Shown here piece after piece: positions 34,370 to 60,700 of a stretch of DNA of 64,000 bases. Positions within the stretch are counted from its first letter, which is position 1; the number at the start of each line of letters is the position of its first letter. The DNA comes from a virus: positions 32,001-96,000 of IMG/VR virus record IMGVR_UViG_3300036770_005816, one strand, 5' to 3'. The position numbers were made by a program, and so were the translations under genes. The notes beneath the pieces were generated by a model. The model was not told the origin of the DNA and ran no database searches. It saw only the letters and a list, made by a program, of their open reading frames with translations.

Positions 34370-34386
34370 ACAATAGACTCAAAACA

Positions 34387-34746
34387 GTGAACAACATACG
34401 CACCCAATACACCCGCCGAAGCAACGCCTACGTCATCCTCTGCTACGCCCGCATGATGGCACACTGGAAAGGGCGGGAATGGTTTACAGACAAGGACTAT
34501 CACACCTTCCAAGCAGGACGCATACAAACCAAACGAATCCGAGAAACCCTCAAACGGCTCGTCCAACAAAACTTCCTCACCAAAGACAACACCAACCCCA
34601 AAACACCCCGCTACCACATAACCGAAAAAGGAATCGGCGCAATCTACGACGTAGAACGCAGATACCCATCACAAGAAATCAACAAAGACATCTACCGACC
34701 CGTCCCCAAACAACAAAAACCCAAAGCCCCAGCCGTCATTAAATAA
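34387..34746 (+). CDS. Winged-helix-like protein
   Basis: LKRLVQQNFL...RYHITEKG wing motif. Confidence 0.55.
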   Translation: MNNIRTQYTRRSNAYVILCYARMMAHWKGREWFTDKDYHTFQAGRIQTKRIRETLKRLVQQNFLTKDNTNPKTPRYHITEKGIGAIYDVERRYPSQEINKDIYRPVPKQQKPKAPAVIK

Positions 34747-34753
34747 AACAAAC

Positions 34754-35296: not shown

Positions 35297-35319
35297 CCCA
35301 AAACAACTAACATCAAACC

Positions 35320-37825: not shown

Positions 37826-38599
37826 TTACTCGTAGTCAGCGTGAGAATCCAAGAACGAAAGCAACCGCTCAGCCGTCGTGTCACCGTCATACGCAGGCGC
37901 AGAACGCAACCACCTGATGAAGTCGTACCACTTGCGTTGTTGCTCAGCAGACTCAAAGACAAGCGTGTACTGAACCACCGCCTTGGAGTTCGCACCACCA
38001 ACCACCGTGCCACTCCCCTGAACCACCGCCCTCGCAGTATCAGTCGAAGCAGGCGCAACCACCCCCGACCCCTCAGCAGTCTCAACCACAGTCAGAGGCG
38101 CAACGGGACTAGCGGACTCGACAACGGGATTCGGATTCACAATCACGGGCGGAGTGTAGGTCGTGTCATCATCCGACACATAATCATCTTCCATCGAAGC
38201 GAACTCGAACTCATCCCATCCGAGCGACTCGAACAAATCCGCATAATCATCAGCAGTCGTAATCATCTCGAACAGAAGGTTGCTATCCACCGTGCCAAGT
38301 TCAGTAGTACGGTTATCAGCAAGAGCGAAAGCGACAGCACGGGAATCGTCGCCATCGAACTCGACGCACGCAACTTCCGACCAACCAAGCCGACGGCACG
38401 CCTCGACCTGATGATTACCCGCAAGCACCGTGTAAGTCCCGTCACCGTTGCCACGCACCACGACGGGTTTCACTTGACCGAACTCCTTGTACGACGCCAT
38501 AATCGCATCGACATTTCCTTTACGGGGGTTGCCGTCGAGAGGAATCAACTTCTCAATCGGCATCGCCAAGTTCTTTATCGACTCGTGGATGTTGCTCAT
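37826..38599 (-). CDS. ParB/Srx-like N-terminal domain protein
   Basis: NPRKG...FGQVKPVVV...LAGNHQVEA...ALADNR. Confidence 0.8.
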   Translation of the reverse strand: MSNIHESIKNLAMPIEKLIPLDGNPRKGNVDAIMASYKEFGQVKPVVVRGNGDGTYTVLAGNHQVEACRRLGWSEVACVEFDGDDSRAVAFALADNRTTELGTVDSNLLFEMITTADDYADLFESLGWDEFEFASMEDDYVSDDDTTYTPPVIVNPNPVVESASPVAPLTVVETAEGSGVVAPASTDTARAVVQGSGTVVGGANSKAVVQYTLVFESAEQQRKWYDFIRWLRSAPAYDGDTTAERLLSFLDSHADYE

Positions 38600-45399: not shown

Positions 45400-47325
45400 T
45401 TAGCCGTTTATGCCCAACCCGCGAGACGCGAACAACCCAACAAGGTCACTCGTAGACACATCGCGCGCCACCGTACCGCCTTCGGTAGCCACATCAACAA
45501 CGCCACGCTTACGCTCAATCAGGTCGTAAATCTCCTCATCAATCGTGCCTTCGCATAGCAGATAGGTAGCCGTCACCGAACCCTTCTGCCCGATTCGGTG
45601 GCAACGACCATAGGTTTGGTCTACATCTGCGGGTGTCCACGGCAACTCCACGAACAACACATCTTGCGACGCAGTCAACGTGTGCCCGGTCTTGGCAGCC
45701 TGAATACTCAACACAATCACGGGTGCGTCGGCGCACGACCCGTCTTGGAAACGGGACTTGTGAGCCTCCACCTCCTCCACCGGCATACCGCCCTGAATCT
45801 TCAGACCGCCGAACCGGTTCGCGATTTCATCAACAATGTCCCTGTGGTGAGCAGCCACAACCACTTTCAGACCGGCTTCCGCATGAGACTCAATGAACTC
45901 AACGACCGAATCCATCTTCGCTTTGGCTGCCAGCCGGCGCAAAACCGACAATTTCACCAAATGTTCGTTCGCTTCCGCCTTCATCCGGGCTAAAACGGCT
46001 GCGGACCTGGGTGACAAACCGAGTTCCTCGGCGATTTGTTTCGCTCGTTCCACCAAATACTCGACGATGTCCCGCTCCGCTTTCCTGTACTCCAACATCT
46101 GTGCGGGACTCCCCGTGACGTACACGGGTGCGTGCCGGACTGGCGGCAACTCGGAGAGGACCTGACCTTTCGTGCGCCGAATGTAGCAGTTTCCTCTCAA
46201 CTTCTCGTTTAGTTCATCAAGATTGCTGTGACCTGAGATGTTCCATTGACCGAACCTGTCTCGGAACGCACCGCAATACCGTCGGTAGAAACCCCACCTT
46301 CCGCCGAACAAATCAAGTTTCCCAAGAACTTCCAACTGGCTGGCGTACTCCGCCGGGCGGCTGGTCACCGGCGTGCCGGTTAGACACAACACGATGCCTT
46401 CGGGTTGAACGCGTTTCGCAATCTTCACGGCTGCTTTGGTGCGTTGAGCATCGGGACTCTTGACATAGTGGCTCTCATCGAACACGACGGCTTGGAAACC
46501 TGTGAGTCGCTTCTCCCAATGATGAATGTTGCTGTATCCGACAACAACCACATCGGTCGGTGTTTCGGGAAATGTTTTGCGGTCGGTAATCGTGGACACG
46601 GTGCGGTCAGGCAACCACTTTGCGTACTCTTTCTTCCAATTCAGAACCAAGTTCGGTGGGCAAACCACCAAAACGGGGTACGAATCCATCACATACTCGA
46701 CGGTCGCAATCGCCTGAATCGTCTTCCCAAGACCCATGTCGTCGGCGATGAACGACCTGCGTGCGTGCGACGCATAGGCGACACCTGCCCGCTGATACGG
46801 GAGAAGTGGGAGTCCCGCGACATCAACCTCTGCTTCTGTTGAGCGGGACATCTGTACGGACTCGTCGTGTTTGCTTCTGATTTCCTGCGCCAACAACCTG
46901 AGGTCGTCGGGAACTTTCTCTCGGAAGTTGTCTGCCCACTCGATTGCTTCTGTTATCGACGAAACGGGTGCTCTCCACGCTTTCGTTTTGGTGTGCCAAG
47001 TAACGCTCGGTATCTGCTTTACTGCTTTCACCTTCACAGGGTCGTAGGTGAACGAGAGATAGATGTAGTCGCCTTCCAACCGCACTCCGAACACTTGGTT
47101 CAGCGGGGTCGGCAAATCAAATGTGAGTATCTGCGGGTCTACGGTGAACCCGTGTTTGTTCCCGAAGTCCCGTATCTCGGCGAGCGAGGTGGCGGGTATG
47201 CGCCATGCTTTGGCAAGTTTGTCCCATTTCGCTCCGCTGATTTGTTTGATTTCTGCGACTTGGTCTGCGTCGTACGGGAAGTAGGCGACGATGTGGTCGT
47301 CGTTGAGTAGTAGTTGTTTGTCCAC
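45400..47325 (-). CDS. SNF2/HARP-like (SMARCAL1-type) helicase
   Basis: ADDMGLGKT, FDESH, LTGTP, QTYGRCHRIGQ; two N-terminal HARP-like repeats (KQIxxxxW...KAWR). Confidence 0.9.
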   Translation of the reverse strand: MDKQLLLNDDHIVAYFPYDADQVAEIKQISGAKWDKLAKAWRIPATSLAEIRDFGNKHGFTVDPQILTFDLPTPLNQVFGVRLEGDYIYLSFTYDPVKVKAVKQIPSVTWHTKTKAWRAPVSSITEAIEWADNFREKVPDDLRLLAQEIRSKHDESVQMSRSTEAEVDVAGLPLLPYQRAGVAYASHARRSFIADDMGLGKTIQAIATVEYVMDSYPVLVVCPPNLVLNWKKEYAKWLPDRTVSTITDRKTFPETPTDVVVVGYSNIHHWEKRLTGFQAVVFDESHYVKSPDAQRTKAAVKIAKRVQPEGIVLCLTGTPVTSRPAEYASQLEVLGKLDLFGGRWGFYRRYCGAFRDRFGQWNISGHSNLDELNEKLRGNCYIRRTKGQVLSELPPVRHAPVYVTGSPAQMLEYRKAERDIVEYLVERAKQIAEELGLSPRSAAVLARMKAEANEHLVKLSVLRRLAAKAKMDSVVEFIESHAEAGLKVVVAAHHRDIVDEIANRFGGLKIQGGMPVEEVEAHKSRFQDGSCADAPVIVLSIQAAKTGHTLTASQDVLFVELPWTPADVDQTYGRCHRIGQKGSVTATYLLCEGTIDEEIYDLIERKRGVVDVATEGGTVARDVSTSDLVGLFASRGLGING

Positions 47326-49689: not shown

Positions 49690-49992
49690 ATGGAAAACGA
49701 ACCACTCGCCGACGAAAAAACTTATGTAGTCACATGGAAAACCGTCGTAACCCTGAACCCGACAAGCGACCAAGAACTTGACGAAAGTTGGGCTGTCCTT
49801 ACCGCCCGAAACACGATGCGAGACCTTGTCGCCGACCCGGAACACCCGGACAACTGGTTCGAAGTCGAGTCAATCGGGAACAGTCCCGCGACCCGAACAT
49901 ATGTTCGCCTAACGGACGCGATTGACAACTACGGGACTGATAACTTCGCTGCCCGCATGGAAGCGAAGTATGGAATAACCGACCCGAAGTAA
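49690..49992 (+). CDS. Hypothetical protein
   Basis: Distal part of 49495..49992 frame; start uncertain. Confidence 0.45.
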   Translation: MENEPLADEKTYVVTWKTVVTLNPTSDQELDESWAVLTARNTMRDLVADPEHPDNWFEVESIGNSPATRTYVRLTDAIDNYGTDNFAARMEAKYGITDPK

Positions 49993-50005
49993 GCCGCGGT
50001 TTCCT

Positions 50006-50020
50006 GACGGTGGCGGAAAG
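50006..50020 (+). repeat. GACGGTGGCGGAAAG boundary element, copy 1 of 5
   Basis: Also at 53391, 55698 (one mismatch), 57696, 60487, same orientation. Confidence 0.85.
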
Positions 50021-50180
50021 CCGGGCGGGGAGCCGCCCTTGTGCGGGTCGGGCTGTGCCTGAATCACGGGTTTCGTGATGTGATGGCGGTTCGCTACCCA
50101 TCGCACACTTCGTAACACCCCGTGCGTAATCTCGGTATCACCTACTAGCCCACCTTCGGGTGGAGAAAGCGAGATACCCA

Positions 50181-50669
50181 ATGTCCACCGCCACCCTTCC
50201 ACCGCTCACGCGCACCGAGCGCGTTGTTGCGTGGCTCCGCGATAACGCGGGCGACAACAACTTCCTGCGTTCCGTTCTTGCGAATTACGACCGTTGGGGT
50301 CGTCTGTCCGACAAGCAACTTGACGCGGTTGAGCGCAACATGAACCGACCCGCGCGCGTTGCGAACCCGAACCCCGTCACCGAAGTCGGCATGTACCGCG
50401 ATGACGCGGGTGTCGTGTTTCGCGTGAAGTTGTCCAAGCAGGGCAGGCTGTACGCGATGCGTTTCGTTCCCGAAGCGCAGGTCAAGTCCGAGCGTTTCGT
50501 CTACGCGGGTGGTGCGGTTCGCGCACTTCGCGCGGATAACCGCATGAGCGTCGCGCAGGCGCAGGCACTTGGCGTTCAGTTCGGCATCTGCTGTGTCTGT
50601 GGCGCGGAACTCACCGCGAGCGAGTCCGTCGCTAACGGCATCGGACCGGTGTGCGCTAAGCGCGTCTGA
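50181..50669 (+). CDS. DUF6011-like Zn-finger protein
   Basis: GRLSDKQ...CCVCGAELTASESVANGIGPVCA; own promoter/leader at 50103-50180 and terminator at ~50683-50732. Confidence 0.75.
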   Translation: MSTATLPPLTRTERVVAWLRDNAGDNNFLRSVLANYDRWGRLSDKQLDAVERNMNRPARVANPNPVTEVGMYRDDAGVVFRVKLSKQGRLYAMRFVPEAQVKSERFVYAGGAVRALRADNRMSVAQAQALGVQFGICCVCGAELTASESVANGIGPVCAKRV

Positions 50670-50763
50670 CGCGCTAGGCGGGTTTCCCCCGTCTCCGTAC
50701 CTTCGGGTGCGGGGGCGGGGGTTTCGTCGTTTCTAGGGGCTTCTCCGCGCGTCTAGCAGGGTT

Positions 50764-51390
50764 CTACGGGGTCACCTTCTTGGTGCGCTTGCATAGGTGC
50801 GCCCACTTCTCCCCGTAGGTACACGGGTTCCACGGGTTCCAACCCGAATAATCGTAAAGCAGTTTCCCTGCCCGCAGGTTCGTGAGCGGGTCAAGTAACG
50901 GTTCCTGTTCGCAGATACCCATGTCTAGACAGATACGCGCCCACTTGTTGCGTTTCAGGTCGTAGTTCACCCCGTTGATTTGGAGTAGACCCGTATCCGA
51001 GCGGTGATTCCACTCGCGTACCCGCAGGATTTCGCAGGTTTCGCTAGGGACATCGCCACCACGCAGGTTCGGACACCCGCCCGACTCCCGCAGGATTATC
51101 GCCCGCAAGGTCGGGAGATGCTCAGGTAGCCACCCCGCTTCGAGCGCCAGGTCGTCGAGCCAGTCCACCTGCCCATGCCTAAACACAATGGGGGCGGGGG
51201 CGGCGGGGAGTCCCGTCTCCGTCGCCACCCTGTCGGGTGCTGGCGGGACTACGAAATCGGGTCTAGTTTCCGAGATAATTACTTGTGTTTCTGGTTTTGC
51301 GACGTTTTCTGGTGCCGGGTCAATCCGGGAGACCACCCCGAATACTGCGCCATAGAAAATAGTTATCGCTGTTCCTACTTTGAGTAACAA
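50764..51390 (-). CDS. Membrane-anchored lytic transglycosylase-like (SLT/lysozyme fold) protein
   Basis: RESGG...SDTGLLQIN...DPLTNLRAG...GWNPW; N-terminal hydrophobic segment. Confidence 0.75.
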   Translation of the reverse strand: MLLKVGTAITIFYGAVFGVVSRIDPAPENVAKPETQVIISETRPDFVVPPAPDRVATETGLPAAPAPIVFRHGQVDWLDDLALEAGWLPEHLPTLRAIILRESGGCPNLRGGDVPSETCEILRVREWNHRSDTGLLQINGVNYDLKRNKWARICLDMGICEQEPLLDPLTNLRAGKLLYDYSGWNPWNPCTYGEKWAHLCKRTKKVTP

Positions 51391-52215
51391 AATTGTTTCC
51401 TTTGTTCGGTTGATGTGATGTGTATTCGTTTCCGGAGTCCGTTCTCCGTCTAATAATCTGATAACAAGTATACCTGTTGGGGGTTTTCGGGGTCAATAAG
51501 CAGCGCACGTGCAGCGCAGCAGCCAGATTTTTGATTTTTTTTCGCTTTTTGGGAGGTCCTGCGGGAGGTCCTGTTGGGCTGCCCGCGTCGCCTGCTGTCT
51601 AGTCCCGCAAATGGCTTGGTTGTTGGGTTTGGTGGGCGGGACTGTGGTGTGGTGGGGTGGGGGTTGGGTCGGGTTGTTATCGGGTCGGGTGGTGGTTGGG
51701 GAGAAGAACACTTCGGTTTTTTGGTGTGACGCGGTTCACATCAGGTTTCAGGTGCGAATAACCCCGCCCGTGTCGGTTCGGGCGGGGGTTCGGTCGGCTA
51801 CGGGTTCAGGGTGTCGCGTGGTGCGCGCACCACCAACACACTATGTCGTCGTGGCGGTCACTCCAAGTAGGCAGATAGTTGTCATGCCTCTCCGTCATTA
51901 CATCATCACAGATAGGACACTCGCGTCCTTCGTGCTCGTTGCTCATAGGTTATTTCCCCCCTTTCATCATGAAGTAGTTCGCTACCACTATGACCACGCC
52001 GTAGGTGACTAAGAATGTCGCTACATAGTTCACGGGTCATTCACCGCGCTCGGGTAGTGGTTGTATGTCCCATTTCGTGCAGTGTCCGTCGTAGCACGCT
52101 TCGCATACGACAGTGCCGTCGTACTCGTAGTCGCTTCCGTCGGGGAGTATCCCGATAGGTGCTAGCCACCACTTGTCCGTGACGGTTTCGCAGTACTCGC
52201 AGGTTCGTTCATCGT

Positions 52216-52545
52216 TCATCGCGCGCACCTCACATACTTCTCGCGGATAGCGATACTGTCGTGGTGACGCGCACGCGACGGTCGGTGTGTCTTTCTCTGC
52301 CATTGACGCTGAGTCATCGTGAGATACGCGAGACGGTGCTCACGCTTGGCACGGTAGATAGCGCGGAACATCTCCGAGTATCCTCGCGCCTTCGCGTCAC
52401 GCAACGCCATGACGGTTTTTGTGTCCTCTACGGGTACGCGGTATCCGCTCACCATTTCGTTGTAGATAGCCCACATAATTTTGTCGGTTTCCGTGCCTTC
52501 TTTGAGAAGGTTCGGCATACCCGATTGGGTTTCATACTTGCTCAT
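52216..52545 (-). CDS. Hypothetical protein
   Basis: Full promoter + CTACTAG-hairpin leader at 52546-52622. Confidence 0.65.
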   Translation of the reverse strand: MSKYETQSGMPNLLKEGTETDKIMWAIYNEMVSGYRVPVEDTKTVMALRDAKARGYSEMFRAIYRAKREHRLAYLTMTQRQWQRKTHRPSRARHHDSIAIREKYVRCAR

Positions 52546-52623
52546 TTCGGTATTCCTTTCCCCGCCCTTCGGCGGTCTAGTAGTTGCTGATTACATTACG
52601 CACGAATCGTCGTGAAGTGTGAT

Positions 52624-53025
52624 TCACCGCGACGGGTAGAACGGAATCTGCCCCAAGTAGAACCCGTTGTCGTCGTACTGAGATGAGAGAAACGCTCGGT
52701 GCTCGTTTTCTATCTTGCGTCGCTCGTCGTCCGCGCGAAGGTCATCTAGCCACATTTTGAGACCTTCACCGCTCGCGCCGTATTCCATTTCGCCGTAGAA
52801 CGGGTTCGGGTAGCCGACGATGTTGCCGACCCACTTGTCCGCGTCACGCGCCGATGTTTCTCCGCTGAATACGCGCTCGGTTGCCCAACCGTTATTTTCA
52901 CCGCCCGATACCGCGATGCGGATTCGGATTAGGTACGGGTTCACGGGTGCGCGCCATACGCTCACTTCGTATCCGAGTGAGAGTGCCTGCGATTTCTTTT
53001 CCCAAGTGATTCCTAAGAGACTCAT
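52624..53025 (-). CDS. Hypothetical protein
   Basis: CTACTAG-CCC-TTCG-GGG-GAAAGG leader places start at 53025. Confidence 0.65.
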   Translation of the reverse strand: MSLLGITWEKKSQALSLGYEVSVWRAPVNPYLIRIRIAVSGGENNGWATERVFSGETSARDADKWVGNIVGYPNPFYGEMEYGASGEGLKMWLDDLRADDERRKIENEHRAFLSSQYDDNGFYLGQIPFYPSR

Positions 53026-53246
53026 TCTGATTCCTTTCCCCCGAAGGGCTAGTAGTTGATTCCTACCCCCCACAATAACAAGGGGGTGTAATACGGTTAT
53101 CAGCGTATCGGGTCAGAACGGGTATCACGCGACAGGGGGTGTAACACGGTTTCACGACCACGCGATTTCGGATTCCCACTTTTTCGCAACGCCTTCACCC
53201 GCCCGCAAGAGACACGCGAACCGAAACCGCACGCAGGACACGGGCG

Positions 53247-53405
53247 AGTCCCGCCCGAAAGACAGAAGATTGGAGTCCCGCGCGCGTATTCATTGTCGCG
53301 GGACTAGCGACTGTCGAGAGCGGACGGGACTGTTGGGCGGTGGCGCGCTTGTTGGGTCGCGTTGCGTTTGTTGCGTTTGTTGCGTTTCCCGACGGTGGCG
53401 GAAAG
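53247..53405 (+). repeat. Boundary element: nested AGTCCCGC/GCGGGACT stems + GACGGTGGCGGAAAG
   Basis: AGTCCCGC at 53247, 53274; (G/A)CGGGACT at 53298, 53324; 15-mer at 53391. Confidence 0.8.
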
Positions 53406-53601
53406 CGGGGGAATCTTGACTCGTGCTGTCGGGTTTCGTGTGGCGGGTGAACGCTGAGAGTGTTCGTTCGGCTACTTGCTCGTACTCGTACCCTTAGTGT
53501 CACGAGTCACATCGCAGAATGTCACTACCGTACTACACCCGTGCGTAGTATGTATGTCATCAACTACTAGCCCGACGAGAGTCGGAGAAACGAGATACGA
53601 A

Positions 53602-54078
53602 ATGAGCAAGAAGAAGAAGGGCAAGGGCAAGAAGCGCGAGAAGAAGCCACTACGCGAATGGACTCAGAAAGACCATTTCCCTATCCAAGTGAACGGCAAG
53701 AAGTTTCGTTGGGACATCATCAACGACATCATCAACGAGCGAGTCGCTATCACCGTCTCGCCGATTCCACCGAACATTCGTGATTGGAAATGCGAAGATT
53801 GCGGAGCACCCAAGCGGTACATCACCGAGCGCGAAACACCGAGCGACCACGACGACTACAAGATTATCGGGTGCGTGTTCTGCTACAAGTTCATCACTAT
53901 CTATCTGAACGAGCGCAAGCACGGCAACACACCTATCCGTCCTGACCAAGTAGCGAAAGGAATCACGCGATACTACACACCGTGTTGCGGAGTCGAGATA
54001 AACCTGAGTCACAAGACGATTGAGCAAGTACGCGAAGCGTGTCGGCAAGATTGTAAGACGAGAAAGGTGGTGAAGTGA
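53602..54078 (+). CDS. Cys-rich hypothetical protein
   Basis: CEDC, CVFC, PCCG, CRQDC; promoter/leader at 53521-53601. Confidence 0.65.
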   Translation: MSKKKKGKGKKREKKPLREWTQKDHFPIQVNGKKFRWDIINDIINERVAITVSPIPPNIRDWKCEDCGAPKRYITERETPSDHDDYKIIGCVFCYKFITIYLNERKHGNTPIRPDQVAKGITRYYTPCCGVEINLSHKTIEQVREACRQDCKTRKVVK

Positions 54079-54300
54079 TGAAACGGAGAGAATGGAACGA
54101 CGCTGATAGGCAAGCGTTCGCAGACGGAGCGCGTACACGAGCGCAGACCCACGCGAACAAGAAGCGCGCGCGCAACAAGCGCGAGTGTCGGGAATACCGT
54201 TGGCGCGGAGCGGAGTAATCCGCGAAACGCCATAACACCCACACCGTAAAGTGTGGATTACACAACTAGCCCGACGCGAGTCGGAGAAAGAGATGAAGTA

Positions 54301-54588
54301 ATGAGCAACTATCCGAATGACCGAGAGCGTCCAACAATCGTGTTGGACAAGCGGTACGACGCGCGCACGAAATGGGTGACGCGCGAGTATGGCGAGTTCG
54401 TCGGCAAGACAATCAAGGAAATCCGACCGATGCGTAAATCCGAATCCGAAGCGTTCGGGTGGGATTACGAGAGCGAAGATGCGTTCGCAATCGTGTTCAC
54501 GGACGGAAGCGTTCTAATCCCGTCGCAAGACCCCGAAGGAAACGGAGCGGGTTGGCTATTCGTCGCAGATGCGGTGGTAGCGAAATGA
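54301..54588 (+). CDS. Hypothetical protein
   Basis: Leader hairpin at 54265-54290; PSQDPEGNGAG motif. Confidence 0.65.
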   Translation: MSNYPNDRERPTIVLDKRYDARTKWVTREYGEFVGKTIKEIRPMRKSESEAFGWDYESEDAFAIVFTDGSVLIPSQDPEGNGAGWLFVADAVVAK

Positions 54589-54800
54589 GCGAAATCACCG
54601 AAACGCGCATCGAGCATCGCTACACCGTCACATTCGTCGGAGCGTATTTCGTGCTATCCATTCACATCTTCGCAGAGAACGAAGAACAAGCGGTGGATAA
54701 CGCAGACGCGCTATTGGGCGACTACTACGGGTGGAATGTGAAAGATGTTTCGCAGGAAATCACCGTAGAGGACGAGGGAGATTCACGAACAACACCGTGA
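54585..54800 (+). CDS. Small acidic protein, paralog of 55171..55353
   Basis: VTFVGAYFV vs VIFVGDYFV. Confidence 0.6.
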   Translation: MSEITETRIEHRYTVTFVGAYFVLSIHIFAENEEQAVDNADALLGDYYGWNVKDVSQEITVEDEGDSRTTP

Positions 54801-54879
54801 GCGTCACGCTCACGCCTACATCGTGCGTAATACAAGCACAACACCAACACCGACGAGAGTCGGAGAAAGAGATAAAGAA

Positions 54880-55119
54880 ATGTTCACCATACCCAACACC
54901 GAGGATTTCCACCTAGAAGTAATGGAGCGTCGTGCGCGACTCGTCGGCAAGCGCGTCCGTTTGGATTACACGAGCGACCCATACACGAAACTCGTGCGCG
55001 GTGACGAAGGCATCGTGCGAAGCATAGATGTATTCGGCACGGTACACATCGCGTGGGACAACGGAAGCACACTCGGACTCATCGAGGACGCGGGCGACTC
55101 GTTCACAATCATCGGGTGA
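54880..55119 (+). CDS. DUF4314-like protein
   Basis: GKRVRL...DPY...GDEGIV..ID.FGTVHIAWDNGSTLGLI. Confidence 0.75.
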   Translation: MFTIPNTEDFHLEVMERRARLVGKRVRLDYTSDPYTKLVRGDEGIVRSIDVFGTVHIAWDNGSTLGLIEDAGDSFTIIG

Positions 55120-55170
55120 AATCCCGATGCCACTACCAACACCGACAAGCGTCGGAGAAAGAGAAACGAA

Positions 55171-55353
55171 ATGAGCAAGACCGAAACGAAAGCACCGAGA
55201 AAGAATGTCATCTTCGTAGGCGACTATTTCGTCACCGTGTTCACGGTGGAAGCGAGCGACGACGACACCGCGATAGCGCAAGCGGAGCAGATGTTCGCAG
55301 ACGAGTTCGGGAGCGACATCGGCTACAACGAGGTGACAGTAGAAGAAGCGTGA
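55171..55353 (+). CDS. Small acidic protein, paralog of 54585..54800
   Basis: Leader hairpin upstream; shared FVGxYFV motif. Confidence 0.6.
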   Translation: MSKTETKAPRKNVIFVGDYFVTVFTVEASDDDTAIAQAEQMFADEFGSDIGYNEVTVEEA

Positions 55354-55577
55354 TGTCACATCACGCCTACATCGTGCGTATCCATAGCACGACATCAACC
55401 ACGACAGAAAGGTAAATGAAATGAACGAACCAATCGGCAAGTGTCAAGAATGTGACCGCGAGTTTCATCTTCTCGACGAGGACGAAGCGAACGAGTATTG
55501 GTACGGACACGATTGCGAAGCGTCCTGACGAAATAGACAGAATGGAGCGAACCGAAAGGTTCGTTCTATTCGCGTCT

Positions 55578-55712
55578 AGTCCCGCGCGAAGACGCGCGAA
55601 TGCGGGACTGCCACCCCCGCGATGAAACAACGGGACTGTTTGTGTGGCGCGCGTTTGTTTGCTTTTGCCGACCGCGCGCGAGTGCGGGCGACCCATTGAC
55701 GGTGGCGGATAG
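55578..55712 (+). repeat. Boundary element copy
   Basis: AGTCCCGC 55578, GCGGGACT 55602, ACGGGACT 55630, GACGGTGGCGGATAG 55698. Confidence 0.8.
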
Positions 55713-55770
55713 CCGTGCGCAGCGCGATGCGGGCGCACCCGTTAGGGATACGCCCGCAAGTGTCGCGGTG

Positions 55771-56094
55771 TCAGTTCGCTGACTTATCCACGAAGTATTC
55801 GGGGTAATGGTTCTCGACCTGCCCGTCGCTATCGGGGTTAGCGACTTCGTACGCGTTCAGGTAAAGAGTGCCGTCCTTGACACCTTCGCCTTCGTTGCCG
55901 TCGCTGTCTACCGTGTGGTAGGTCTCTTCGCGAAGGTCTACGACGATTACTTCGTCGTGTACGCGGTTGCCGTCTGCGTCCTTCTTCGCGATAGCGATGA
56001 CGACCATCGCGCCTTCGCGCACCGCGCCTTCGTCGATGACTGCGCGGACTACGGTCTTACCGCACTCCATTTCCTTGATGCTTGTGACTGTCAT
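55771..56094 (-). CDS. Hypothetical protein
   Basis: Own promoter/leader at 56095-56166. Confidence 0.65.
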   Translation of the reverse strand: MTVTSIKEMECGKTVVRAVIDEGAVREGAMVVIAIAKKDADGNRVHDEVIVVDLREETYHTVDSDGNEGEGVKDGTLYLNAYEVANPDSDGQVENHYPEYFVDKSAN

Positions 56095-56210
56095 TTCGGT
56101 ATTCCCTTCTCCCCGTGTGGGGGTTGTTGTTGTTGTTAGTTACGCACGATGTGTTCGGTGGTGTGATGTGACGGGTGCGCGCCCCACCTTGACGCGCACC
56201 CGTCGTTAGT

Positions 56211-56513
56211 TCACTTGTTGTTCGGTCGTCTGCCGATAGCACCGCGCACTTCGCGCACCTTCGGGGTGCTCGGTGTGTTGAGCAACCACTCGCCTGCCGT
56301 TCGGTACGCGTTCAGGTATCCGCCGTCCACGATGCCACTCGTGAGTCGGATTAGTCCGTTGACATACTCCGCTTCGGTGACATCTAGGTCTTCGAACTCG
56401 ACGCTACCGCTCAGGTAGTCACTCCACGCGTTGACGATGATGTCACGCCCGTAAAGTTCTCCGATGCCGATGTAGTTGTCTGCGATGACTTCATCTAGTG
56501 AGAAGTCTCTCAT
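56211..56513 (-). CDS. Hypothetical protein
   Basis: Own promoter/leader at 56514-56584 fixes start at 56513. Confidence 0.65.
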   Translation of the reverse strand: MRDFSLDEVIADNYIGIGELYGRDIIVNAWSDYLSGSVEFEDLDVTEAEYVNGLIRLTSGIVDGGYLNAYRTAGEWLLNTPSTPKVREVRGAIGRRPNNK

Positions 56514-56601
56514 GTGTTGTCTCCTTCTCCCCGTTCGGGGTGTTGTTGTTGATAGTGATACGCACGGAACACCATCAAGTGTGATGCTCCGTGCGCGTGG
56601 T

Positions 56602-56982
56602 TCACTTGCTTGCGTGTTGCTCGGTGAGCGCGTGCCACCTTGCGTACCGCTCGTCTGAGTTGAGTAGCGCGAGCGTCTCCGCTTCGTATGCGAGCAACGC
56701 CTTCGGGGAGTATCGCGCGACCTGACGGGTCGGGAGATACTCGTACACCGCTTCTTCGCCGAATAGCGCGAACTCGGTGACTTCGTAGCCACCGCCGTCG
56801 CGATAGACGGACTCACGAAGAACCGCCATGAATCGCTTGCGGTCTGCGTCGTGGTGAATGTCGAGCGTCACCTGCTTGCGGTTGCCGTCCGCGTCGGGTT
56901 GCGCTTCGGGGTTGCGCCAACGGTAGACGACTTCGCGCTTGCCAAGTCGCTCCCTTCGCTCCGAGCCGATGATGATAGTCAT
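56602..56982 (-). CDS. Hypothetical protein
   Basis: Own promoter/leader at 56983-57058. Confidence 0.65.
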   Translation of the reverse strand: MTIIIGSERRERLGKREVVYRWRNPEAQPDADGNRKQVTLDIHHDADRKRFMAVLRESVYRDGGGYEVTEFALFGEEAVYEYLPTRQVARYSPKALLAYEAETLALLNSDERYARWHALTEQHASK

Positions 56983-57082
56983 TTCTTATTCCCTTCTCCG
57001 ACTTGTGTCGGGCTAGTAGTTGGTTATTACATTACGCACGGGGTGTAGCAGGGTGTGACATCGCACCCTGCCCACCTTCGGT

Positions 57083-57400
57083 TCATTCGTGCCACGCTCC
57101 GCACTCAGGACAACCGCCGACCGCGTACGGGTTGTCGCACTCGTAGCACGCTTGCGCTCCGCGTTCGTCGTCCGAATCTTCGTCGGATTCGTCACCGAGT
57201 CCGTCGACATTCACCCATGCGAGCACGGTGCGAAGTAGGTTGTCGTAATCTCCGCTTGTCGCTTCTGCCCTGAACGCATCGACTTCGGATTCGCTGATTC
57301 CTGCGCGACTCATCGCACGGGTGACGCGACCGAGAATCGAGAACGCGTTGCCGTCTTCGCCAACGAGTTGCACATTCACTTCGGGATACTTCGGATTCAT
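57083..57400 (-). CDS. Conserved phage protein (LVGEDGNAF...SGDYDNLL family) with C-terminal CxxC/CxxC
   Basis: Motif recognition; own promoter/leader at 57401-57477. Confidence 0.7.
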   Translation of the reverse strand: MNPKYPEVNVQLVGEDGNAFSILGRVTRAMSRAGISESEVDAFRAEATSGDYDNLLRTVLAWVNVDGLGDESDEDSDDERGAQACYECDNPYAVGGCPECGAWHE

Positions 57401-57522
57401 TACCTATCTCCTTCTCCGACTGTCGTCGGTTCTAGTAGTTGATACACATAGTACGCACGGGGTGTTACATAGTGTGACATCGCGTGTGATGCGACCTGCG
57501 TCACATTGGGTACACGGGTGCT

Positions 57523-57592
57523 CGACCGAGCGACCGACCGACCGAGCGGGCGACCGAGCGGGCGACCGACCGAGCGACCGACCGAGCGAGCA
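57523..57592. repeat. Low-complexity GACC/GAGC/GGGC 4-mer tandem repeat
   Basis: cgaccgagcgaccgaccgaccgagcgggcgaccgagcgggcgaccgaccgagcgaccgaccgagcgagc. Confidence 0.8.
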
Positions 57593-57617
57593 GACGCACG
57601 CGCGCGCACGCGCGGGG

Positions 57618-57710
57618 AGTCCCGCGATGGTTTCGCGGGCGCGGGACTGTGCGTGTGGGGCGCACCCAAAGATGTGAGAGATGAACAAGTTTCCCGACGG
57701 TGGCGGAAAG
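57618..57710 (+). repeat. Boundary element copy
   Basis: AGTCCCGC 57618, GCGGGACTGT 57641, 15-mer 57696. Confidence 0.8.
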
Positions 57711-57921
57711 CCGGTAGCCGGCGCAGCGTGATGTTCGGAAAGTTTGATTTCTGTGTGACCCCGATGTACACACGGCGTGTACTCAGATGTGACGACTGTC
57801 TCTTGACTTGCCGTGTCTATTACCCTATTATGTAAGTAGCAGGTGAGACAACCATGTCACACCCCGCTCGTATTGTGCGTAATAGAAGTATCAACCACCG
57901 AGCCACTACTAGGAGAAACAA

Positions 57922-58341
57922 ATGGATACAACCGAAACAAACAACGAAGTCGCAGAAGCGACACGCATCTTGGCGGAAGCGATTAGCGAGTACGGCAGAC
58001 CCGTCTACATCGTCAAAGTTCCTTCCCGTATTCAGCATCTCGTTCCGTTGGCAGTACGCAAAGAACTTCTCGCTAACTCCAAACTCAGCGAAGGTTGGGT
58101 ACGCGACAACGACGGTTGCTACTACAAAGGTCGACCCGACAACAAGAGCATTATTCTCGCATGGGCGAAAGAGAACCTTTACCAACAAGTCACAACGAAA
58201 GACATCGCAGAAGCGACAGGCGTACCGATACACACCGTACGCACGGTCGTTGGCGACCGACCTGACATCTTCCGCGAGAGCGACGGGTGGACATACGAAG
58301 TCCGCGACCCGCAGGCAGACCGAAAGGCGGAGAAGAAATGA
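57922..58341 (+). CDS. HTH-containing hypothetical protein
   Basis: VTTKDIAEATGVPIHTVRTV; promoter at 57857-57885. Confidence 0.65.
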   Translation: MDTTETNNEVAEATRILAEAISEYGRPVYIVKVPSRIQHLVPLAVRKELLANSKLSEGWVRDNDGCYYKGRPDNKSIILAWAKENLYQQVTTKDIAEATGVPIHTVRTVVGDRPDIFRESDGWTYEVRDPQADRKAEKK

Positions 58342-58572
58342 GCAACACCAAACACGCTTGGGAGTTGGATTATGTCCACTCCGTATTTCAGGAGTTAGAA
58401 GCGCAAGGGGTAGCACTACCGATAGGTGACTACGGCATCGTCTACCGATACATAGAGGACGCTCGCGAAGTGTTCCTATCGGAAGAAGACACCGCGTCAC
58501 ACCCCTGAGTTATCGTGCGTAGTAATAACAACACCTACTAGCCCGACCGAGAGGTCGGAGAAAGAGCAAATA

Positions 58573-58872
58573 ATGAACAGCATAGACAAATGGGAACAAG
58601 CGTTCCTGTTCTACAACTTGGAGGACAACACTTGGGTCGCGTACGAAACGCTACCCCCGAACCACTCGCTCACCGCAGGTGAGGAGGAGAACACCCATGC
58701 GTTCGTGGACATCTCCCATTGGACACAAGCAGACCTTGACGAGTTTGACAAGTCCGAGGAGTTGGAACGACTCACGATTATTGAGTCGTTGGAGTTCACC
58801 GAGTTCAGCAAGCAGATGCGTGAGCATGGCTCAGGCGCAGGCATCGTGTTCGGTATGGGGGGTAGCAAGTGA
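58573..58872 (+). CDS. Hypothetical protein
   Basis: Promoter/leader at 58497-58572. Confidence 0.65.
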   Translation: MNSIDKWEQAFLFYNLEDNTWVAYETLPPNHSLTAGEEENTHAFVDISHWTQADLDEFDKSEELERLTIIESLEFTEFSKQMREHGSGAGIVFGMGGSK

Positions 58873-59324
58873 TTACCACCCAATACCACCTTCCCATTGA
58901 GGACGACAACAAGAAACCGATGCGCGACTCGGCGTTCTTCGTCGGCGACTACGGACACGAACTCGTGGCAACCGTGACCGACAAGACGCAAGACAGAACT
59001 ATCTCCGTCTACTGCGACGGCGAGATGCGTATCCACTTGTGGGAAACGAAAGAGGCGCGCGACCGAGGTGACGACCCCGAAGTCATCAGGTATGTGGACA
59101 GGCTGTTGGAAGCAGGTCTCACGAACGACGAACTTCTCGCGAAAGCGAACGAGGAGGAGCGTTTGGAGTGGGTGAACAACACTTGGTTCGACCTGTACGC
59201 AGACGCACCAAACGACCCTGAGCAGGGTTGGCTCAACGCTGTACACCACGACATCGTGGAAGCAGTAGAGCAGGCTCAGGCACTTATCAACGACGAAGAA
59301 ACATGGAAGGAACTCAACAAATGA
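58869..59324 (+). CDS. Hypothetical protein
   Basis: Coupled to upstream ORF. Confidence 0.6.
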   Translation: MITTQYHLPIEDDNKKPMRDSAFFVGDYGHELVATVTDKTQDRTISVYCDGEMRIHLWETKEARDRGDDPEVIRYVDRLLEAGLTNDELLAKANEEERLEWVNNTWFDLYADAPNDPEQGWLNAVHHDIVEAVEQAQALINDEETWKELNK

Positions 59325-59593
59325 AGATTTCAGACATCGTAGAACACCTGCAAGAGAAGTATTCACCGAACGAGGAAATCGTCATCGCATGGTGGGACAG
59401 AGACCTGTTCCCCAAGTATGACCCCGACAAGGACGACGACATACCGCTCACAAAGAAGGAGTGGACTCGCGCGTTGGAACTCATGGCGCGTGATTCGTCG
59501 GCGTGGTCAGACAACATCTCGGAGAAGATGTACGACTTCATCAAGTACTACACGGAGAAAGCAACAGAACAACTAGCAGAGGAGAACAAGTAA
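59321..59593 (+). CDS. Hypothetical protein
   Basis: ATGA overlap. Confidence 0.55.
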   Translation: MKISDIVEHLQEKYSPNEEIVIAWWDRDLFPKYDPDKDDDIPLTKKEWTRALELMARDSSAWSDNISEKMYDFIKYYTEKATEQLAEENK

Positions 59594-59832
59594 TGAGTAA
59601 TCAACATCAGCACACCGAGCACTACTTCGTGGTGGTCGGCATCGCAGACGAGGAAGGCAACATCTCGTTTCGCATAGACGGCGATACGGCGCAGGCTCGT
59701 TTCCCCGAAGGTTGTATTTGGACGGGAGACGAGTGGATTTCCGCTACACCAAGCGAGGAGTGGCTGTTGGAACGCGACAACGCGATTATCAAGGCTCTCG
59801 ACGACAAGTTCGACAAAGAGGTGAAGGTATGA
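59593..59832 (+). CDS. Hypothetical protein
   Basis: TAATG overlap, GAGGAG RBS. Confidence 0.55.
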   Translation: MSNQHQHTEHYFVVVGIADEEGNISFRIDGDTAQARFPEGCIWTGDEWISATPSEEWLLERDNAIIKALDDKFDKEVKV

Positions 59833-60176
59833 CCAAGAAGAAAGAAACACGCAAAGAACTCGACCCCGTGTTTGACGCGCGAGGAAACCGTGTGTGCGCT
59901 ATGGAAGGTTGCGTCACACGACTCTCCAAATACAACGACCATGTTGTGTGTCGCGCTCACACCGTTGAGTATGCGATAAACTATTTACCGATAGAGGAAC
60001 CTGTATGACCGAGCAAAGCAAGGCAACAGAACTTGTGGACAACGCTTTGAGAGAAATCTCAGGGCGCGACTTGGTATCCGCTAAGGAGATGACCGACCTG
60101 CTGTTGGACATCAGGCTGTACCTGATGAGCGAGGGCGAGAAAGCAAGCACGACACTAACCGAGTAAGGTGTAGGGC

Positions 60177-60374
60177 GTGAAAGTGACCTGTACCCTGTGT
60201 GGGGACGAACTAGACACCGCGACTATGGCGACCGTAGTGAAGGTCGTCGGGTGGGTTGAGTGGAAAGGCGACCGCGTTGTCGGCTCAGTCAAGAACCCTT
60301 CTGCCCCCGTCGGCTACGCACACAAGATGTGTGTCGACTCTCCACAGTCCCGAGACCAAATCACCCTGTTCTGA
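60177..60374 (+). CDS. Small Zn-binding hypothetical protein
   Basis: CTLC...HKMC. Confidence 0.5.
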   Translation: MKVTCTLCGDELDTATMATVVKVVGWVEWKGDRVVGSVKNPSAPVGYAHKMCVDSPQSRDQITLF

Positions 60375-60380
60375 CTTGTG

Positions 60381-60501
60381 AGTCCCGCGTTTCGCGCGCG
60401 GTAGCGGGGCTGTTGTGTGTGTGCTTGTGGTGCGGGACTTCTCGCGGGCGGGCGCGCCTGCGCGTGCGCGTGTGTGCGTGTTTCGTGACGGTGGCGGAAA
60501 G
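60381..60501 (+). repeat. Boundary element copy
   Basis: AGTCCCGC 60381, GCGGGACT 60432, 15-mer 60487. Confidence 0.8.
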
Positions 60502-60700
60502 CGAGCGCAGGTCGGGTTTGTTGGTGCGTTTGTTACCGTTCGGTAACTTACCGCTCGGTAACTTCGGTGTGACGAGCGTCTCTTGACTTCTCATCACACT
60601 TGCCGTATTATTGTGCGTAGTAATAGTGCCACCGAGTGGTGGGGACAGAAACGGGAAACCGTGTAACACCCCTTCCCTAATGTGGATAGCAAGAAGGACA

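Follow-up and report, generated by a model that had tools for sequence, protein, structure and literature searches.

The phage record spans 133,214 bp and derives from a large uncultured tailed phage; the window, the whole stretch of DNA analyzed here, is a 64-kb part of it. Coordinates are those of the window unless marked as genome coordinates. The 15-mer GACGGTGGCGGAAAG (M1) occurs five times in the window at two or fewer mismatches, always on the plus strand, against an expectation of 0.23, and five copies were reached in none of 100 dinucleotide shuffles. Genes were placed with our own crude codon-usage caller, which assigns 65% of the sequence as coding. M1 copy 1 (50006–50020) lies 14 nt past the stop of the upstream plus-strand ORF and 140 nt before the next plus-strand ORF. 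Copies 2 (53391–53405) and 4 (57696–57710) occupy divergent gaps, copy 3 (55698–55712) a convergent gap, and copy 5 (60487–60501) a tandem gap. Copy 3 is a GATAG variant with one mismatch and lacks the GTTTC(C/G)N motif that stands directly upstream of the other four. A preliminary description of this DNA had listed the same five plus-strand positions, usually with GTTTCNN ahead of them, and its junction types (divergent at 53.3 and 57.6 kb, convergent at 55.6 kb, tandem at 50.0 and 60.4 kb) match both the codon-usage gene map and the AT skew. The M1 core is ACGGTGG[CT]G, and the longer form, tGACGGTGGCGGAAAGc, is an asymmetric word of ~17 bp. The entire record contains 14 forward and no reverse copies at genome 82006–102381 (window numbering 50006–70381). 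The M1 series extends past the span first reported and past the window end.

The second component is the 7-mer pair AGYCCCG / CGGGRCT (M2), which in its 7–8-bp form reads AGYCCCG(C) / (G)CGGGRCT and whose two members are denoted L and R. The window contains 22 copies of AGTCCCGC (13 plus, 9 minus) against 1.6 expected. The AGTCCCGC...(G/A)CGGGACT inverted pair precedes all five M1 copies, as had been proposed, and its right arm ends 47–67 nt upstream of M1. Inverted pairs are found at 49882–49938 (AGTCCCGC ... ACGGGACT, within the 3' end of the upstream ORF) and at 57618–57648 (25 bp start to start). At two junctions the stem is more than a single pair: the 53.2-kb gap holds a four-site array (53247–53331) in the order L L R R with spacings of 27, 25, and 26 bp, and the 55.6-kb gap holds a three-site L R R array (55578–55637) preceded by a terminator-like hairpin at ~55546–55573. 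The array at 60346–60439 reads AGTCCCG, AGTCCCGC, CGGGGCT, and GCGGGACT. The reported stem-only copy without M1 is real (51601–51643), and a second such pair at 51209–51250 had been overlooked.

M2 occupies a single region. The entire genome has 50 copies of CGGGACT, and every one lies at genome 68033–102009 (window 36033–70009), a 34-kb non-structural region that makes up 26% of the genome; the portion inside the window runs from the first CGGGACT at 36033 to 64000. Six control 7-mers have 6–19 copies each, mostly outside this domain, and in two relatives all CGGGRCT copies (49/49 and 45/45) fall within ~20% of the genome, likewise in the non-structural part. Some M2 sites lie inside genes. 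The SNF2-helicase gene carries five single sites in both orientations (45753–47171, starting at 45753, 46105, 46453, 46811, and 47166) that are 348–358 bp apart and use all three reading frames. The position, orientation, and reading frame of intragenic sites differ between clades, while the spacing in the SNF2 gene stays at roughly 300–400 bp and at least one site is present in 35 of 37 orthologues.

The M2 arms have a fixed arrangement with respect to M1 and to each other. Of 297 M1 sites, 199 have an M2 in the preceding 200 nt, compared to 20% of control positions, with left arms peaking at −150 to −100 and right arms at −100 to −1; in distant clades, the pair ends just 10–13 nt before M1. 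The arm order is L-R in 278 cases and R-L in 6, and either order could fold. L-R start-to-start spacings form sharp peaks at 24–25 bp (139 pairs) and 33–34 bp (46 pairs), and L-L and R-R spacings peak at 27–29 bp, so the spacing is quantised in steps of ~9 bp. The third base of the two arms does not covary (T/A 53, T/G 83, C/G 97, C/A 45; Fisher p = 0.21), and complementarity scarcely continues beyond the eighth base. Because of the strict head-to-head order, the ~9-bp spacing steps, and the absence of compensatory change, M2 appears more consistent with a protein half-site than with a hairpin maintained only for its stability. The spacers between the arms fold slightly better than shuffled sequence (−15.9 versus −14.5 kcal/mol; better in 63% of 160, p = 3e-6), so a hairpin or cruciform may have some role. 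Canonical hairpin plus T-run terminators are separate elements just upstream of the M2 arrays in relatives L014 and L016. The suggestion of an attC-like recombination site is not supported: there is no match to Phage_integrase, the tyrosine recombinase/integrase family, in the phage, the arms lack compensatory change, and the length of the supposed loop is quantised. A REP-like reading of the module is also not supported.

M1 is a genuine polar element conserved throughout the family. At two or fewer mismatches it occurs 148 times forward and once in reverse across 44 related loci, of which 37 carry it, and its core occurs in 310 forward versus 24 reverse unique contexts among ~125 related viral contigs. 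In the IMG/VR stretches displayed with at least two tight M2-M1 composites, all copies lie on one strand in 22 of 22 (89 copies). Intergenic gaps hold 108 of 125 M1 sites, although uncalled sequence makes up only 35%. Of 24 relatives examined, 17 retain an M1 at the orthologous junction that precedes the DUF7376/AAA_5 operon. Conservation covers ~17 nt, with no conservation of the flanks and no bipartite or downstream conservation in relatives.

The preliminary description held that M1 orientation follows the genome rather than transcription. The window alone does not prove this, since a plus-strand gene comes next after four of the five window copies (13 of 14 in the genome). The relatives bear it out: ~70% of genes downstream of M1 are on the plus strand and ~30% of sites face minus-strand genes, and relative L237 has a plus-strand module between two minus-strand genes with no plus-strand gene to serve. 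M1 orientation is much more uniform than the orientation of neighboring genes. Local regulation does not require such genome-wide uniformity, which suits a genome-scale polar process (nicking or a replication/translocation barrier) at least equally well. M1 could be a strand-specific nicking recognition site, producing localized single-strand interruptions as in T5, phiKMV, and tf, with M2 accessory or unrelated. The 14 one-stranded copies, indifferent to local gene direction, resemble in number the 14 nicks of phage tf, whose consensus sites are described as all top strand despite two convergent transcription units (excerpted text of PMC3517423). We consider this reading fairly unlikely: known nick consensuses are not reported as restricted to intergenic gaps or to one region, whereas M1 stays within 20 kb and is tightly associated with M2 arrays and promoters, and no nickase candidate was identified in the phage.

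Predicted σ70-like promoters (TTGACT-17-TATTAT) lie on the plus strand at 57803–57831, 93 nt beyond M1 copy 4, and at 60583–60611, 82 nt beyond copy 5, where the promoter is followed by the shared leader GTGCGTAGTAATAG. Of 295 M1 sites, 61 are followed within 400 nt by a σ70-like plus-strand promoter versus 15.3 expected, and 47 are preceded within 400 nt by a minus-strand one versus 12.2 expected. Promoters directed towards M1 are not enriched (20 versus 16.8 and 8 versus 12.0 expected). The modules thus sit upstream of predicted promoters that diverge from them, and the M1/M2 gaps are probably little transcribed. The distance from M1 to the plus-strand promoter varies from 13 to 391 nt and therefore does not have classical activator geometry, and the overall promoter arrangement is compatible with a control module.

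M1 itself might be a promoter for the host RNA polymerase redirected by a phage factor, with M2 as attenuator, in a PeSL-like terminator-promoter cassette. M1 precedes every plus-strand gene block within genome 82–102 kb, is long, asymmetric, and conserved as such promoters are, lies close behind the M2 pair in distant clades, and in some cases stands 8–15 nt before a start that has no other Shine-Dalgarno; L025 and L044 have a small conserved ORF between M1 and the σ70 promoter. Still, this explanation is unlikely given the ~30% of sites that face minus-strand genes, the leaders of mostly 100–800 nt that would traverse a σ70 promoter, and the missing bipartite or downstream conservation. Searches of the phage gave no match to Sigma70_r2 and none to T7-type RNA polymerase families, the latter with a control search that was likewise silent, and two large uncharacterised phage proteins do not resemble polymerases.

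Activity in RNA is very improbable, whether as nut/ops-like antitermination, an SAS-like translation signal, a processing site, or a small RNA. Seven M1 copies at genome 100.2–102.4 kb lie within transcribed operon gaps, with a similar situation in relatives; some of these stand in for the Shine-Dalgarno, and the variant GGAGGAAAG occurs among them. GGCGGAAAG also resembles what we take to be the ops core, GGCGGTAG. Against this, M1 shows no excess near start codons (14.8% within 30 nt versus 17.0% of controls; 15/123 in a second count versus 17.9 expected), and the three σ70-like promoters predicted downstream of M1 in this genome place those copies outside the promoters' transcripts. The phage has no NusG/RfaH-type gene, and the module sequence has no Rfam match at gathering scores. 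The earlier alternative of a repeated ncRNA is not supported, given the same location upstream of promoters, the lack of Rfam matches and M2 covariation, and the end of M1 conservation at ~17 nt.

The region between modules is mosaic, and blocks are reordered or inverted relative to L009, L011, and L016 while the M1 strand is unchanged. The modules could therefore be mainly recombination linkers, direct repeats that allow homologous cassette shuffling and whose inverted copies are purged because they cause harmful inversions. Ends of homologous blocks between relatives lie within 150 nt of M1/M2 in 25 of 60 cases versus 25% of random positions, a 2.8-kb replacement between L016 and L027 begins 10 nt from an M2 arm, and PeSLs of T4-type phages are described as acting in this way (PMC2839356, in the portion available). 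The breakpoint excess is modest and confounded by faster intergenic divergence, and neither Phage_integrase nor Y1 transposase has a match in the phage, so no site-specific recombinase was found. The invariant 9-nt and 7-nt cores across 55–80% protein identity, the ordered, phased M2 arrays, and the M2 sites within conserved genes indicate that selection acts directly on the words, which makes linkage alone quite unlikely as the explanation.

From the directly observed anatomy, strand bias, regional confinement of M2, spacing rules, and promoter association, we infer protein binding at M1 and M2 together with its consequences. Most likely, sequence-specific DNA-binding proteins dock at the two words, in line with the earlier proposal of polar sites acting on DNA, which the location in gaps upstream of promoters and the one-sided orientation support as most likely. 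The proposed cis-acting module of the early, non-structural region consists of an array of one to four 7–8-bp M2 half-sites and a single asymmetric ~17-bp M1 on a constant side of the array and a constant strand. The docking proteins may be phage-encoded or host-derived. None is assignable among the phage proteins; the only hints of a DNA-binding protein are two weak helix-turn-helix matches of the Sigma70_r4_2 type that score under the family cut-off. Bound protein would control or insulate σ70-type early promoters that fire outward, those on the minus strand flanking M2 and those on the plus strand flanking M1, and would block transcription running between adjacent units. M1 copies in tight operon gaps may act as polar roadblocks, and single M2 sites across DNA-metabolism genes may extend control to the entire non-structural third of the genome. 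A roadblock upstream of a promoter does not alone regulate that promoter, which counts against this reading. We tentatively favor, at somewhat less than an even chance, a composite module that binds protein and controls or insulates early transcription units, similar to SAS/ESAS, stoperators, and T4 PeSLs.

The closest analogies to M2 are the region-restricted chromosomal site families matS/MatP, parS/ParB, and KorB operators and the uptake sequences DUS/USS, in which a word is enriched in one domain and absent elsewhere, occurs in either orientation, is tolerated in genes, and sometimes forms intergenic inverted pairs. matS, parS, and KorB operators differ from M2 in being contiguous palindromes, and DUS/USS in being genome-wide. 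The M2 domain encodes a ParB-like protein in which no helix-turn-helix was found, and which has GNHQVEA where CTPase ParBs have GxxRxxA; judged from its sequence, it thus apparently lacks the CTPase-type motif, unlike the parS/ParB system.

Stoperators are 13–14-bp protein-binding sites that act as polar transcription blocks on DNA. In each genome arm they are oriented along transcription, and the phages that carry them are temperate and have a repressor. The stoperators of Cluster A mycobacteriophages (L5 gp71) resemble M1 as multicopy asymmetric sites in short intergenic gaps, a description that comes in part from one sentence of PMC3203893. The stoperator-like label in the preliminary description is a fair analogy for how M1 may work, but M1 does not qualify as a stoperator by orientation or lifestyle markers: it is uniform whatever the gene direction, no integrase was found in this phage, and the phage has no known repressor. 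Nick sites are like M1 a short one-strand consensus regardless of transcription, while the intergenic, 20-kb-confined, and M2-paired traits of M1 are not described for the 14 tf sites in the excerpted text (PMC3517423).

PeSLs of T4-type phages are, like the module, repeated composites between small uncharacterised genes of a hyperplastic early region that adjoin σ70-type early promoters and are linked to cassette shuffling (available portions of PMC2839356 and PMC4122927). Their conserved part, as described there, is the σ70 promoter itself plus a generic G/C terminating stem-loop, whereas the words conserved here, M1 and M2, represent neither a promoter hexamer nor a terminator; the σ70-like promoter stands apart from M1, 13–391 nt away, and canonical terminators are likewise separate from the module.

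SAS/ESAS elements are known from Cluster K mycobacteriophages (PMC3203893), with similar motifs in Microbacterium phage clusters EF and EC (PMC7302621), and share no sequence similarity with M1/M2. In the available text of these sources, SAS lies 3–8 bp before starts and includes the ribosome-binding site, whereas M1 is not start-associated and lies mostly 100–800 nt from the next gene with a σ70-like promoter between. ESAS arms are 17 bp with a 4–13-bp spacer, compared to M2 arms of 7–8 bp spaced 24–25 or 33–34 bp, and unlike ESAS, M2 makes arrays and also occurs singly within genes. The likeness lies in organization. As described in the same portions, SAS is an asymmetric repeat of 13–18 bp present 10–19 times per genome and found only in the non-structural part, where almost every copy points the same way; about half of the copies have an upstream inverted-repeat pair with a spacer, and the ESAS repeat consensus varies by subcluster while the asymmetric word stays (PMC3203893, PMC7302621).

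The 15-mer of the boundary element, M1, is a strand-specific word common to a whole phage family. Its five copies in the window (50006, 53391, 55698, 57696 and 60487) all lie on the + strand, as the preliminary description had it, against 0.23 copies expected. The complete record holds 14 copies with ≤2 mismatches, 14 of 14 forward, between genome positions 82006 and 102381: the five in the window, two near genome 96.7 kb and seven packed into 100.2-102.4 kb. Related loci were fetched through the AAA_5 ATPase gene that adjoins the fifth copy (44 loci) and the SNF2 helicase gene (80 loci). The 44 AAA_5 loci contain 148 forward copies of M1 and a single reverse one (≤2 mismatches), with at least one copy in 37 of the loci. 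The conserved part is about 17 nt, tGACGGTGGCGGAAAGc, and its flanks carry no information (124 unique contexts). The invariant core ACGGTGG[CT]G was counted over all loci in 310 forward versus 24 reverse unique contexts; duplicates among the relatives were removed by local sequence only, and shared ancestry is ignored in all counts over them. A motif scattered at random over both strands, or one not conserved in relatives, does not fit the 310:24 bias and the presence in 37 of 44 loci; the word is about 93-100% one-stranded. The 3′ tail reads GAAAGC in the studied phage, GAAGA in the record of the related locus L025, and [T/G]ATA[T/C]A, accompanied by an upstream CCAAnnTGA, in the related loci L012-L016. 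The L012-L016 clade also carries an extra word, ATAAACCT(A/C)AAC, which stands between a preceding sigma70 -10 element or M1 core and AAGGAG ribosome-binding sites; in several of these loci no other 7-mer is as over-represented.

Some of the reverse core matches are probably glycine-rich coding repeats. Repeat-bearing regions of the studied genome lie outside the window at 113099-113122, 115234-115325 and 120.7-131.4 kb (stretches L137 and L138). L137 and L138 contain a GTA-triplet run, six copies of ACCGCCCTCTTTC in 90 bp and many CCGCCACCG-type repeats; the last stem from collagen-like or glycine-rich fibre genes and, on the reverse strand, partly mimic the M1 core. One live rival explanation for the strandedness of M1 is that its copies may be strand-specific nick sites. 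M1 shares with the nick sites of phages tf, phiKMV and T5 a consensus on one strand only, and phage tf has 14 sites, every one on the top strand although its transcription is convergent (PMC3517423).

The record is rated linear and 91% complete in IMG/VR at 133,214 bp, and its source is a tailed phage; the window covers bases 32001-96000 of it. The late genes encode a terminase, a portal, a prohead protease, an HK97-type capsid, a Baseplate_J protein, fibre proteins (collagen-like and glycine-rich) and a VanY-type lysin. Genes for replication and DNA metabolism form a block of their own, encoding a ribonucleotide reductase, methyltransferases, a primase-helicase, the SNF2 helicase, SSB, a Metallophos protein, a DUF932 protein and a ParB-like protein, and a further block consists of small genes without known function. 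No DNA-level relatives were found among GenBank phages, and the nearest proteins belong to distant actinophages (49% identity for the capsid, 35% for the helicase). Proteins adjoining the modules mostly lack a family; the family searches returned only DUF6011, DUF7376 and PHROGs of unknown function.

The second component, M2, is the 7-mer stem word with left arm AGYCCCG and right arm CGGGRCT. AGTCCCGC occurs 22 times in the window versus 1.6 expected, and the inverted AGTCCCGC/CGGGACT pair reported upstream of every 15-mer is there in each case, ending 47-67 nt before it. The stem-only copy is likewise present, at 51601-51643, and a second pair lacking M1 lies at 51209-51250. The conserved unit is the 7-mer CGGGACT/AGTCCCG, which takes the form CGGGRCT in relatives. 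All 50 copies in the studied genome (21 on +, 29 on -) fall within genome 68033-102009, or 26% of the record; six control 7-mers with 6-19 copies each lie mostly outside this domain. AGCCCCG or AGTCCCG ranks among the top four over-represented 7-mers in 26 of 44 loci. Two nearly complete relatives of 138 kb and 145 kb confine 49 of 49 and 45 of 45 M2 copies to about 28.5 kb; in the same two genomes the reversed control word occurs 11 and 9 times.

Intragenic M2 sites occur in all three reading frames. The SNF2 helicase gene contains five single sites 348-358 bp apart, and 35 of 37 orthologues contain M2 sites. Between clades the exact column, the orientation and the A/G variant of these sites differ while their neighbourhoods are kept (e.g. 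columns 1250, 1254 and 1261). In the nearest-neighbour distances over all loci (n = 1674, relatedness ignored) pairs stand out as a peak below 50 bp, distances of 75-200 bp are scarce, and a broad mode spans 200-475 bp. A less probable reading of this pattern is that M2 is a domain-marking code, with the M1 copies of this domain serving as polar stations in a DNA transaction on the scale of the genome. The 7-mer would then be kept about every 300-400 bp, in any orientation or frame, across the early and DNA-metabolism third and strictly excluded from the late two-thirds. M2 would mark this third for a sequence-specific binding or loading protein, and the transaction at M1 might be strand-specific nicking or a directional barrier to replication, entry or translocation.

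The left edge of the M2 domain is occupied by a DNA methyltransferase gene (window 35320-36054). Just left of the first M2 site, window 34001-36000 has a + strand GC skew of -0.50 and an AT skew of +0.51, extremes caused by C/A-rich repeats (CCACC-type words). Inside the domain, a minus-strand gene at window 37826-38599 encodes the 257-aa ParB-like partition protein (ParB_N/PHROG). By eye this protein has GNHQVEA at what we take to be the position of the CTPase-ParB motif GxxRxxA, followed by an acidic low-complexity linker. A ParB-parS or KorB-operator type of system, which combines a contiguous palindromic site with a CTPase ParB bearing a helix-turn-helix, was not supported for M2: the arms are about 17 bp apart, and the ParB-like protein matches ParB_N only and, by eye, deviates at the CTPase motif.

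Together the two words make up a single polar module. Of 297 M1 cores, 199 have an M2 site within the preceding 200 nt, versus 20% of control positions; left arms peak at -150 to -100 and right arms at -100 to -1 relative to M1, and M2 is depleted just downstream. The gap between pair and M1 is only 10-13 nt in distant clades and 47-67 nt in the clade of the studied phage, where a G/T-rich insert widens it. Of 24 relatives examined, 17 keep an M1 copy at the junction that precedes the DUF7376/AAA_5 operon. When the seven intergenic modules of the window are aligned, only the short words match. When IMG/VR was scanned for the tight composite (CGGGRCT, 5-30 nt, ACGGTGGYGGAA), 110 stretches matched, and among those listed all 22 with at least two copies were one-stranded (89 copies). 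The composite gave 48 single matches in 185,579 prokaryote genomes, many of them one conserved sequence recurring within a genus, and that scan found no 8-kb stretch with a second composite or a one-sided core excess (core ≤3 copies). The prokaryote matches are therefore read as chance and give no clue to the host.

The stretch at window 50669-52624, about 1.95 kb at 59% G+C with no gene called, contains the two M2 pairs that lack M1. Long G/T-rich runs with repeated G3-5 tracts follow these pairs, and a minus-strand sigma70-like promoter is located at 51496. Alternating GC/GT tracts also occur beside the modules at 57.6 and 60.45 kb. Together the runs and tracts are possible non-B DNA between divergent promoters.

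The order and spacing of M2 words follow strict rules. Neighbours 10-60 nt apart stand in the order AGYCCCG...CGGGRCT 278 times and in the reverse order 6 times, and folding is possible in both. Measured from start to start, pairs cluster at 24-25 bp (139 of them) and at 33-34 bp (46). Neighbours in the same direction peak at 27-29 bp, which yields arrays of two left arms followed by two right arms, such as the one at window 53247-53331. The variable third base of the arms does not covary (53 T/A, 83 T/G, 97 C/G and 45 C/A; Fisher p = 0.21), and complementarity seldom extends past the eighth base. Spacers fold slightly better than shuffled ones (-15.9 versus -14.5 kcal/mol, 63% of 160 pairs, p = 3e-6), so a hairpin or cruciform may still contribute. 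Selection for a hairpin thus has a mixed record, with no covariation yet a small folding-energy excess, and judged from their sequences the pairs look more like protein half-sites than stability-selected hairpins.

Integron attC sites have the tyrosine recombinase IntI encoded nearby and an imperfect hairpin with a variable loop that is kept by pairing. The earlier proposal of an attC-like site found no support, given the missing arm covariation, the quantised 24-25 and 33-34 bp spacing and the lack of a tyrosine recombinase: the Phage_integrase family (PF00589) had no match in the 91%-complete record, and the control search was positive for all 14 of its genomes. An intrinsic terminator was not supported for M2 either, on geometry, for which a G+C-rich stem, a short loop and a direct T-run are all required. 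The M2 loops are about 13-17 nt, and G/T-rich sequence follows the arms with the T-run absent. Canonical hairpins with T-runs are separate elements beside the modules in the related loci L014, L016 and L237, and a strict terminator scan upstream of M1 was positive at 9 of 295 sites versus 3.7 expected.

M1 was intergenic at 108 of 125 sites according to a crude codon-usage caller that left 35% of the sequence uncalled. A start codon (ORF ≥60 aa) lies within 30 nt of M1 at 14.8% of 297 sites versus 17.0% of controls, and a second count gave 15 of 123 versus 17.9 expected; start-adjacent copies are a minority of about 10-20%. Positions just after the stops of + ORFs are enriched (21.5% versus 8.7%). 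A minority of copies occupies tight operon gaps, placed after a stop and 8-15 nt before a start that in some cases has no further Shine-Dalgarno; these are located at genome 100494-102381, with homologous clusters in L014 and L016. An uncalled small ORF at window 54090-54194 (genome 86090-86194) is a homologue of a basic protein of about 53 aa (tblastn E 2e-6 to 3e-5). The ORF for this protein directly follows M1 in the relatives L025 and L044; its homologue in the studied genome adjoins no M1.

The preliminary description held that orientation follows the genome rather than transcription. A + gene comes next for 13 of the 14 M1 copies in the studied genome, so the window alone does not prove the point, and it is the family that bears it out. 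In relatives the gene downstream of M1, by crude calls, is + at 68 sites and - at 30. The downstream strand judged by purine skew is 58% versus 29% at M1 and 48% versus 35% at control positions. The + module of L237 (6894-6939) is flanked by minus-strand genes on both sides, its M2 lies within the spacer of the minus promoter, and next after its M1 comes a bidirectional terminator.

The M1 copies at window 57696, window 60487 and genome 96741 are followed, after 93, 82 and 45 nt, by consensus sigma70-like promoters (TTGACT-17-TATTAT) that share a leader. The promoters are located at window 57803-57831, window 60583-60611 and genome 96801 (window 64801, outside the window), and each is followed by the leader (G)TGCGTAGTAATAG. 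Promoter and leader look like a repeated early promoter-leader cassette. The three promoters are near-identical; weaker versions occur at genome 97802 and 99140, where the genes have a GGAGG ribosome-binding site. Of 295 M1 sites, 61 have a + promoter in the next 400 nt (15.3 expected) and 47 have a - promoter in the 400 nt before them (12.2 expected); promoters directed towards M1 are not enriched at these sites. The typical layout runs from a minus promoter through the M2 array and M1 to a plus promoter, at variable distances, and the + promoter is a separate element 13-391 nt downstream of M1. From this observed anatomy we tentatively propose that the module would be a protein-bound composite that controls or insulates early transcription units, a possibility we rate somewhat short of even. 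Candidate binders are small helix-turn-helix-like proteins encoded at window 57922-58341 and 25476-26108, along with the ParB-like protein.

M1 itself could be a promoter for a redirected host polymerase. This idea is also live, but no polymerase or sigma factor was found in the phage. The T7-type RNA polymerase family had no match, a weak result because the control search was silent as well; Sigma70_r2 had no match, and two Sigma70_r4_2 matches fell below cut-off. Two large proteins without a solid family gave no polymerase signal. Their genes are adjacent on the minus strand: one (window 28723-31098) encodes 791 aa, with a basic C-terminus that matches DUF5872 below cut-off and with two PHROGs of unknown function, and the other (window 31095-33566) encodes 823 aa, with low-scoring Atlas leads to DUF3626 and ART-PolyVal 'polyvalent' proteins, all <0.9. 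An ops/RfaH-type site was not supported: M1 is upstream, not downstream, of the three mapped promoters, and the phage has no NusG NGN match.

The control or insulator reading also competes with a live proposal that the module is a recombination linker like the PeSLs of T4-type phages. These are described as conserved repeats of a sigma70 early promoter and a terminating stem-loop that flank shuffled cassettes of unknown genes in a hyperplastic region (PMC2839356). The region between modules is mosaic, and breakpoints fall near sites in 25 of 60 cases versus 25% at random, a weakly positive and confounded result. Unlike PeSLs, M1 has no -35/-10 structure and the promoters are separate, and the M2 pairs lack a T-run and have canonical terminators beside them.

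Two other classes were set aside. The suggestion of a repeated ncRNA found no backing, with 0 Rfam matches at gathering score in the 64-kb window, where no tRNA or tmRNA was found either. REP/BIME elements with a RAYT were not supported, given the lack of a Y1 (HUH) transposase match (PF01797) in the genome.

Cluster A stoperators have an orientation tied to the transcription direction of nearby genes and belong to temperate phages with an immunity repressor and an integrase. The M1 core differs in being 310:24 one-stranded while only about 70% of downstream genes are +. As to lifestyle, the 91%-complete record gave no Phage_integrase match. The description 'stoperator-like' is a fair analogy for the possible action of the element and fails as class membership, since M1 orientation is independent of gene direction, as in L237. 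M1 resembles the SAS and ESAS in being asymmetric, in one orientation and limited to the non-structural region, and in having upstream inverted repeats, which accompany about half of SAS copies. The SAS of Cluster K lie a few bp upstream of start codons, overlapping the ribosome-binding site (PMC3203893). SAS identity was not supported for M1, which has no start-codon association, and a limited literature search found no later RNA-seq work on SAS/ESAS.

Actinophage-like genomes repeatedly show conserved intergenic words that run in one direction and lack an explanation; no function is given for SAS/ESAS, for the Cluster EC motif or for localized nick sites in the cited reports (PMC3203893, PMC7302621, PMC3517423). 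With >100 related viral contigs, the present case contributes a large natural data set, and M1 and M2 would serve as simple metagenome markers for the phage family. The case also places new constraints on mechanism: M1 orientation is independent of local gene direction, M2 is confined to the non-structural domain, where its spacing is roughly regular even within a conserved helicase gene, and M2 sites obey a strict rule of order and spacing with no compensatory change. Binding factors, if found, would show how a large lytic-looking phage partitions and times the expression or handling of its genome. If the domain-marking code is real, it would be a phage counterpart of macrodomain sites and Ter- or nick-type polar sites, common to a large uncultured phage family.
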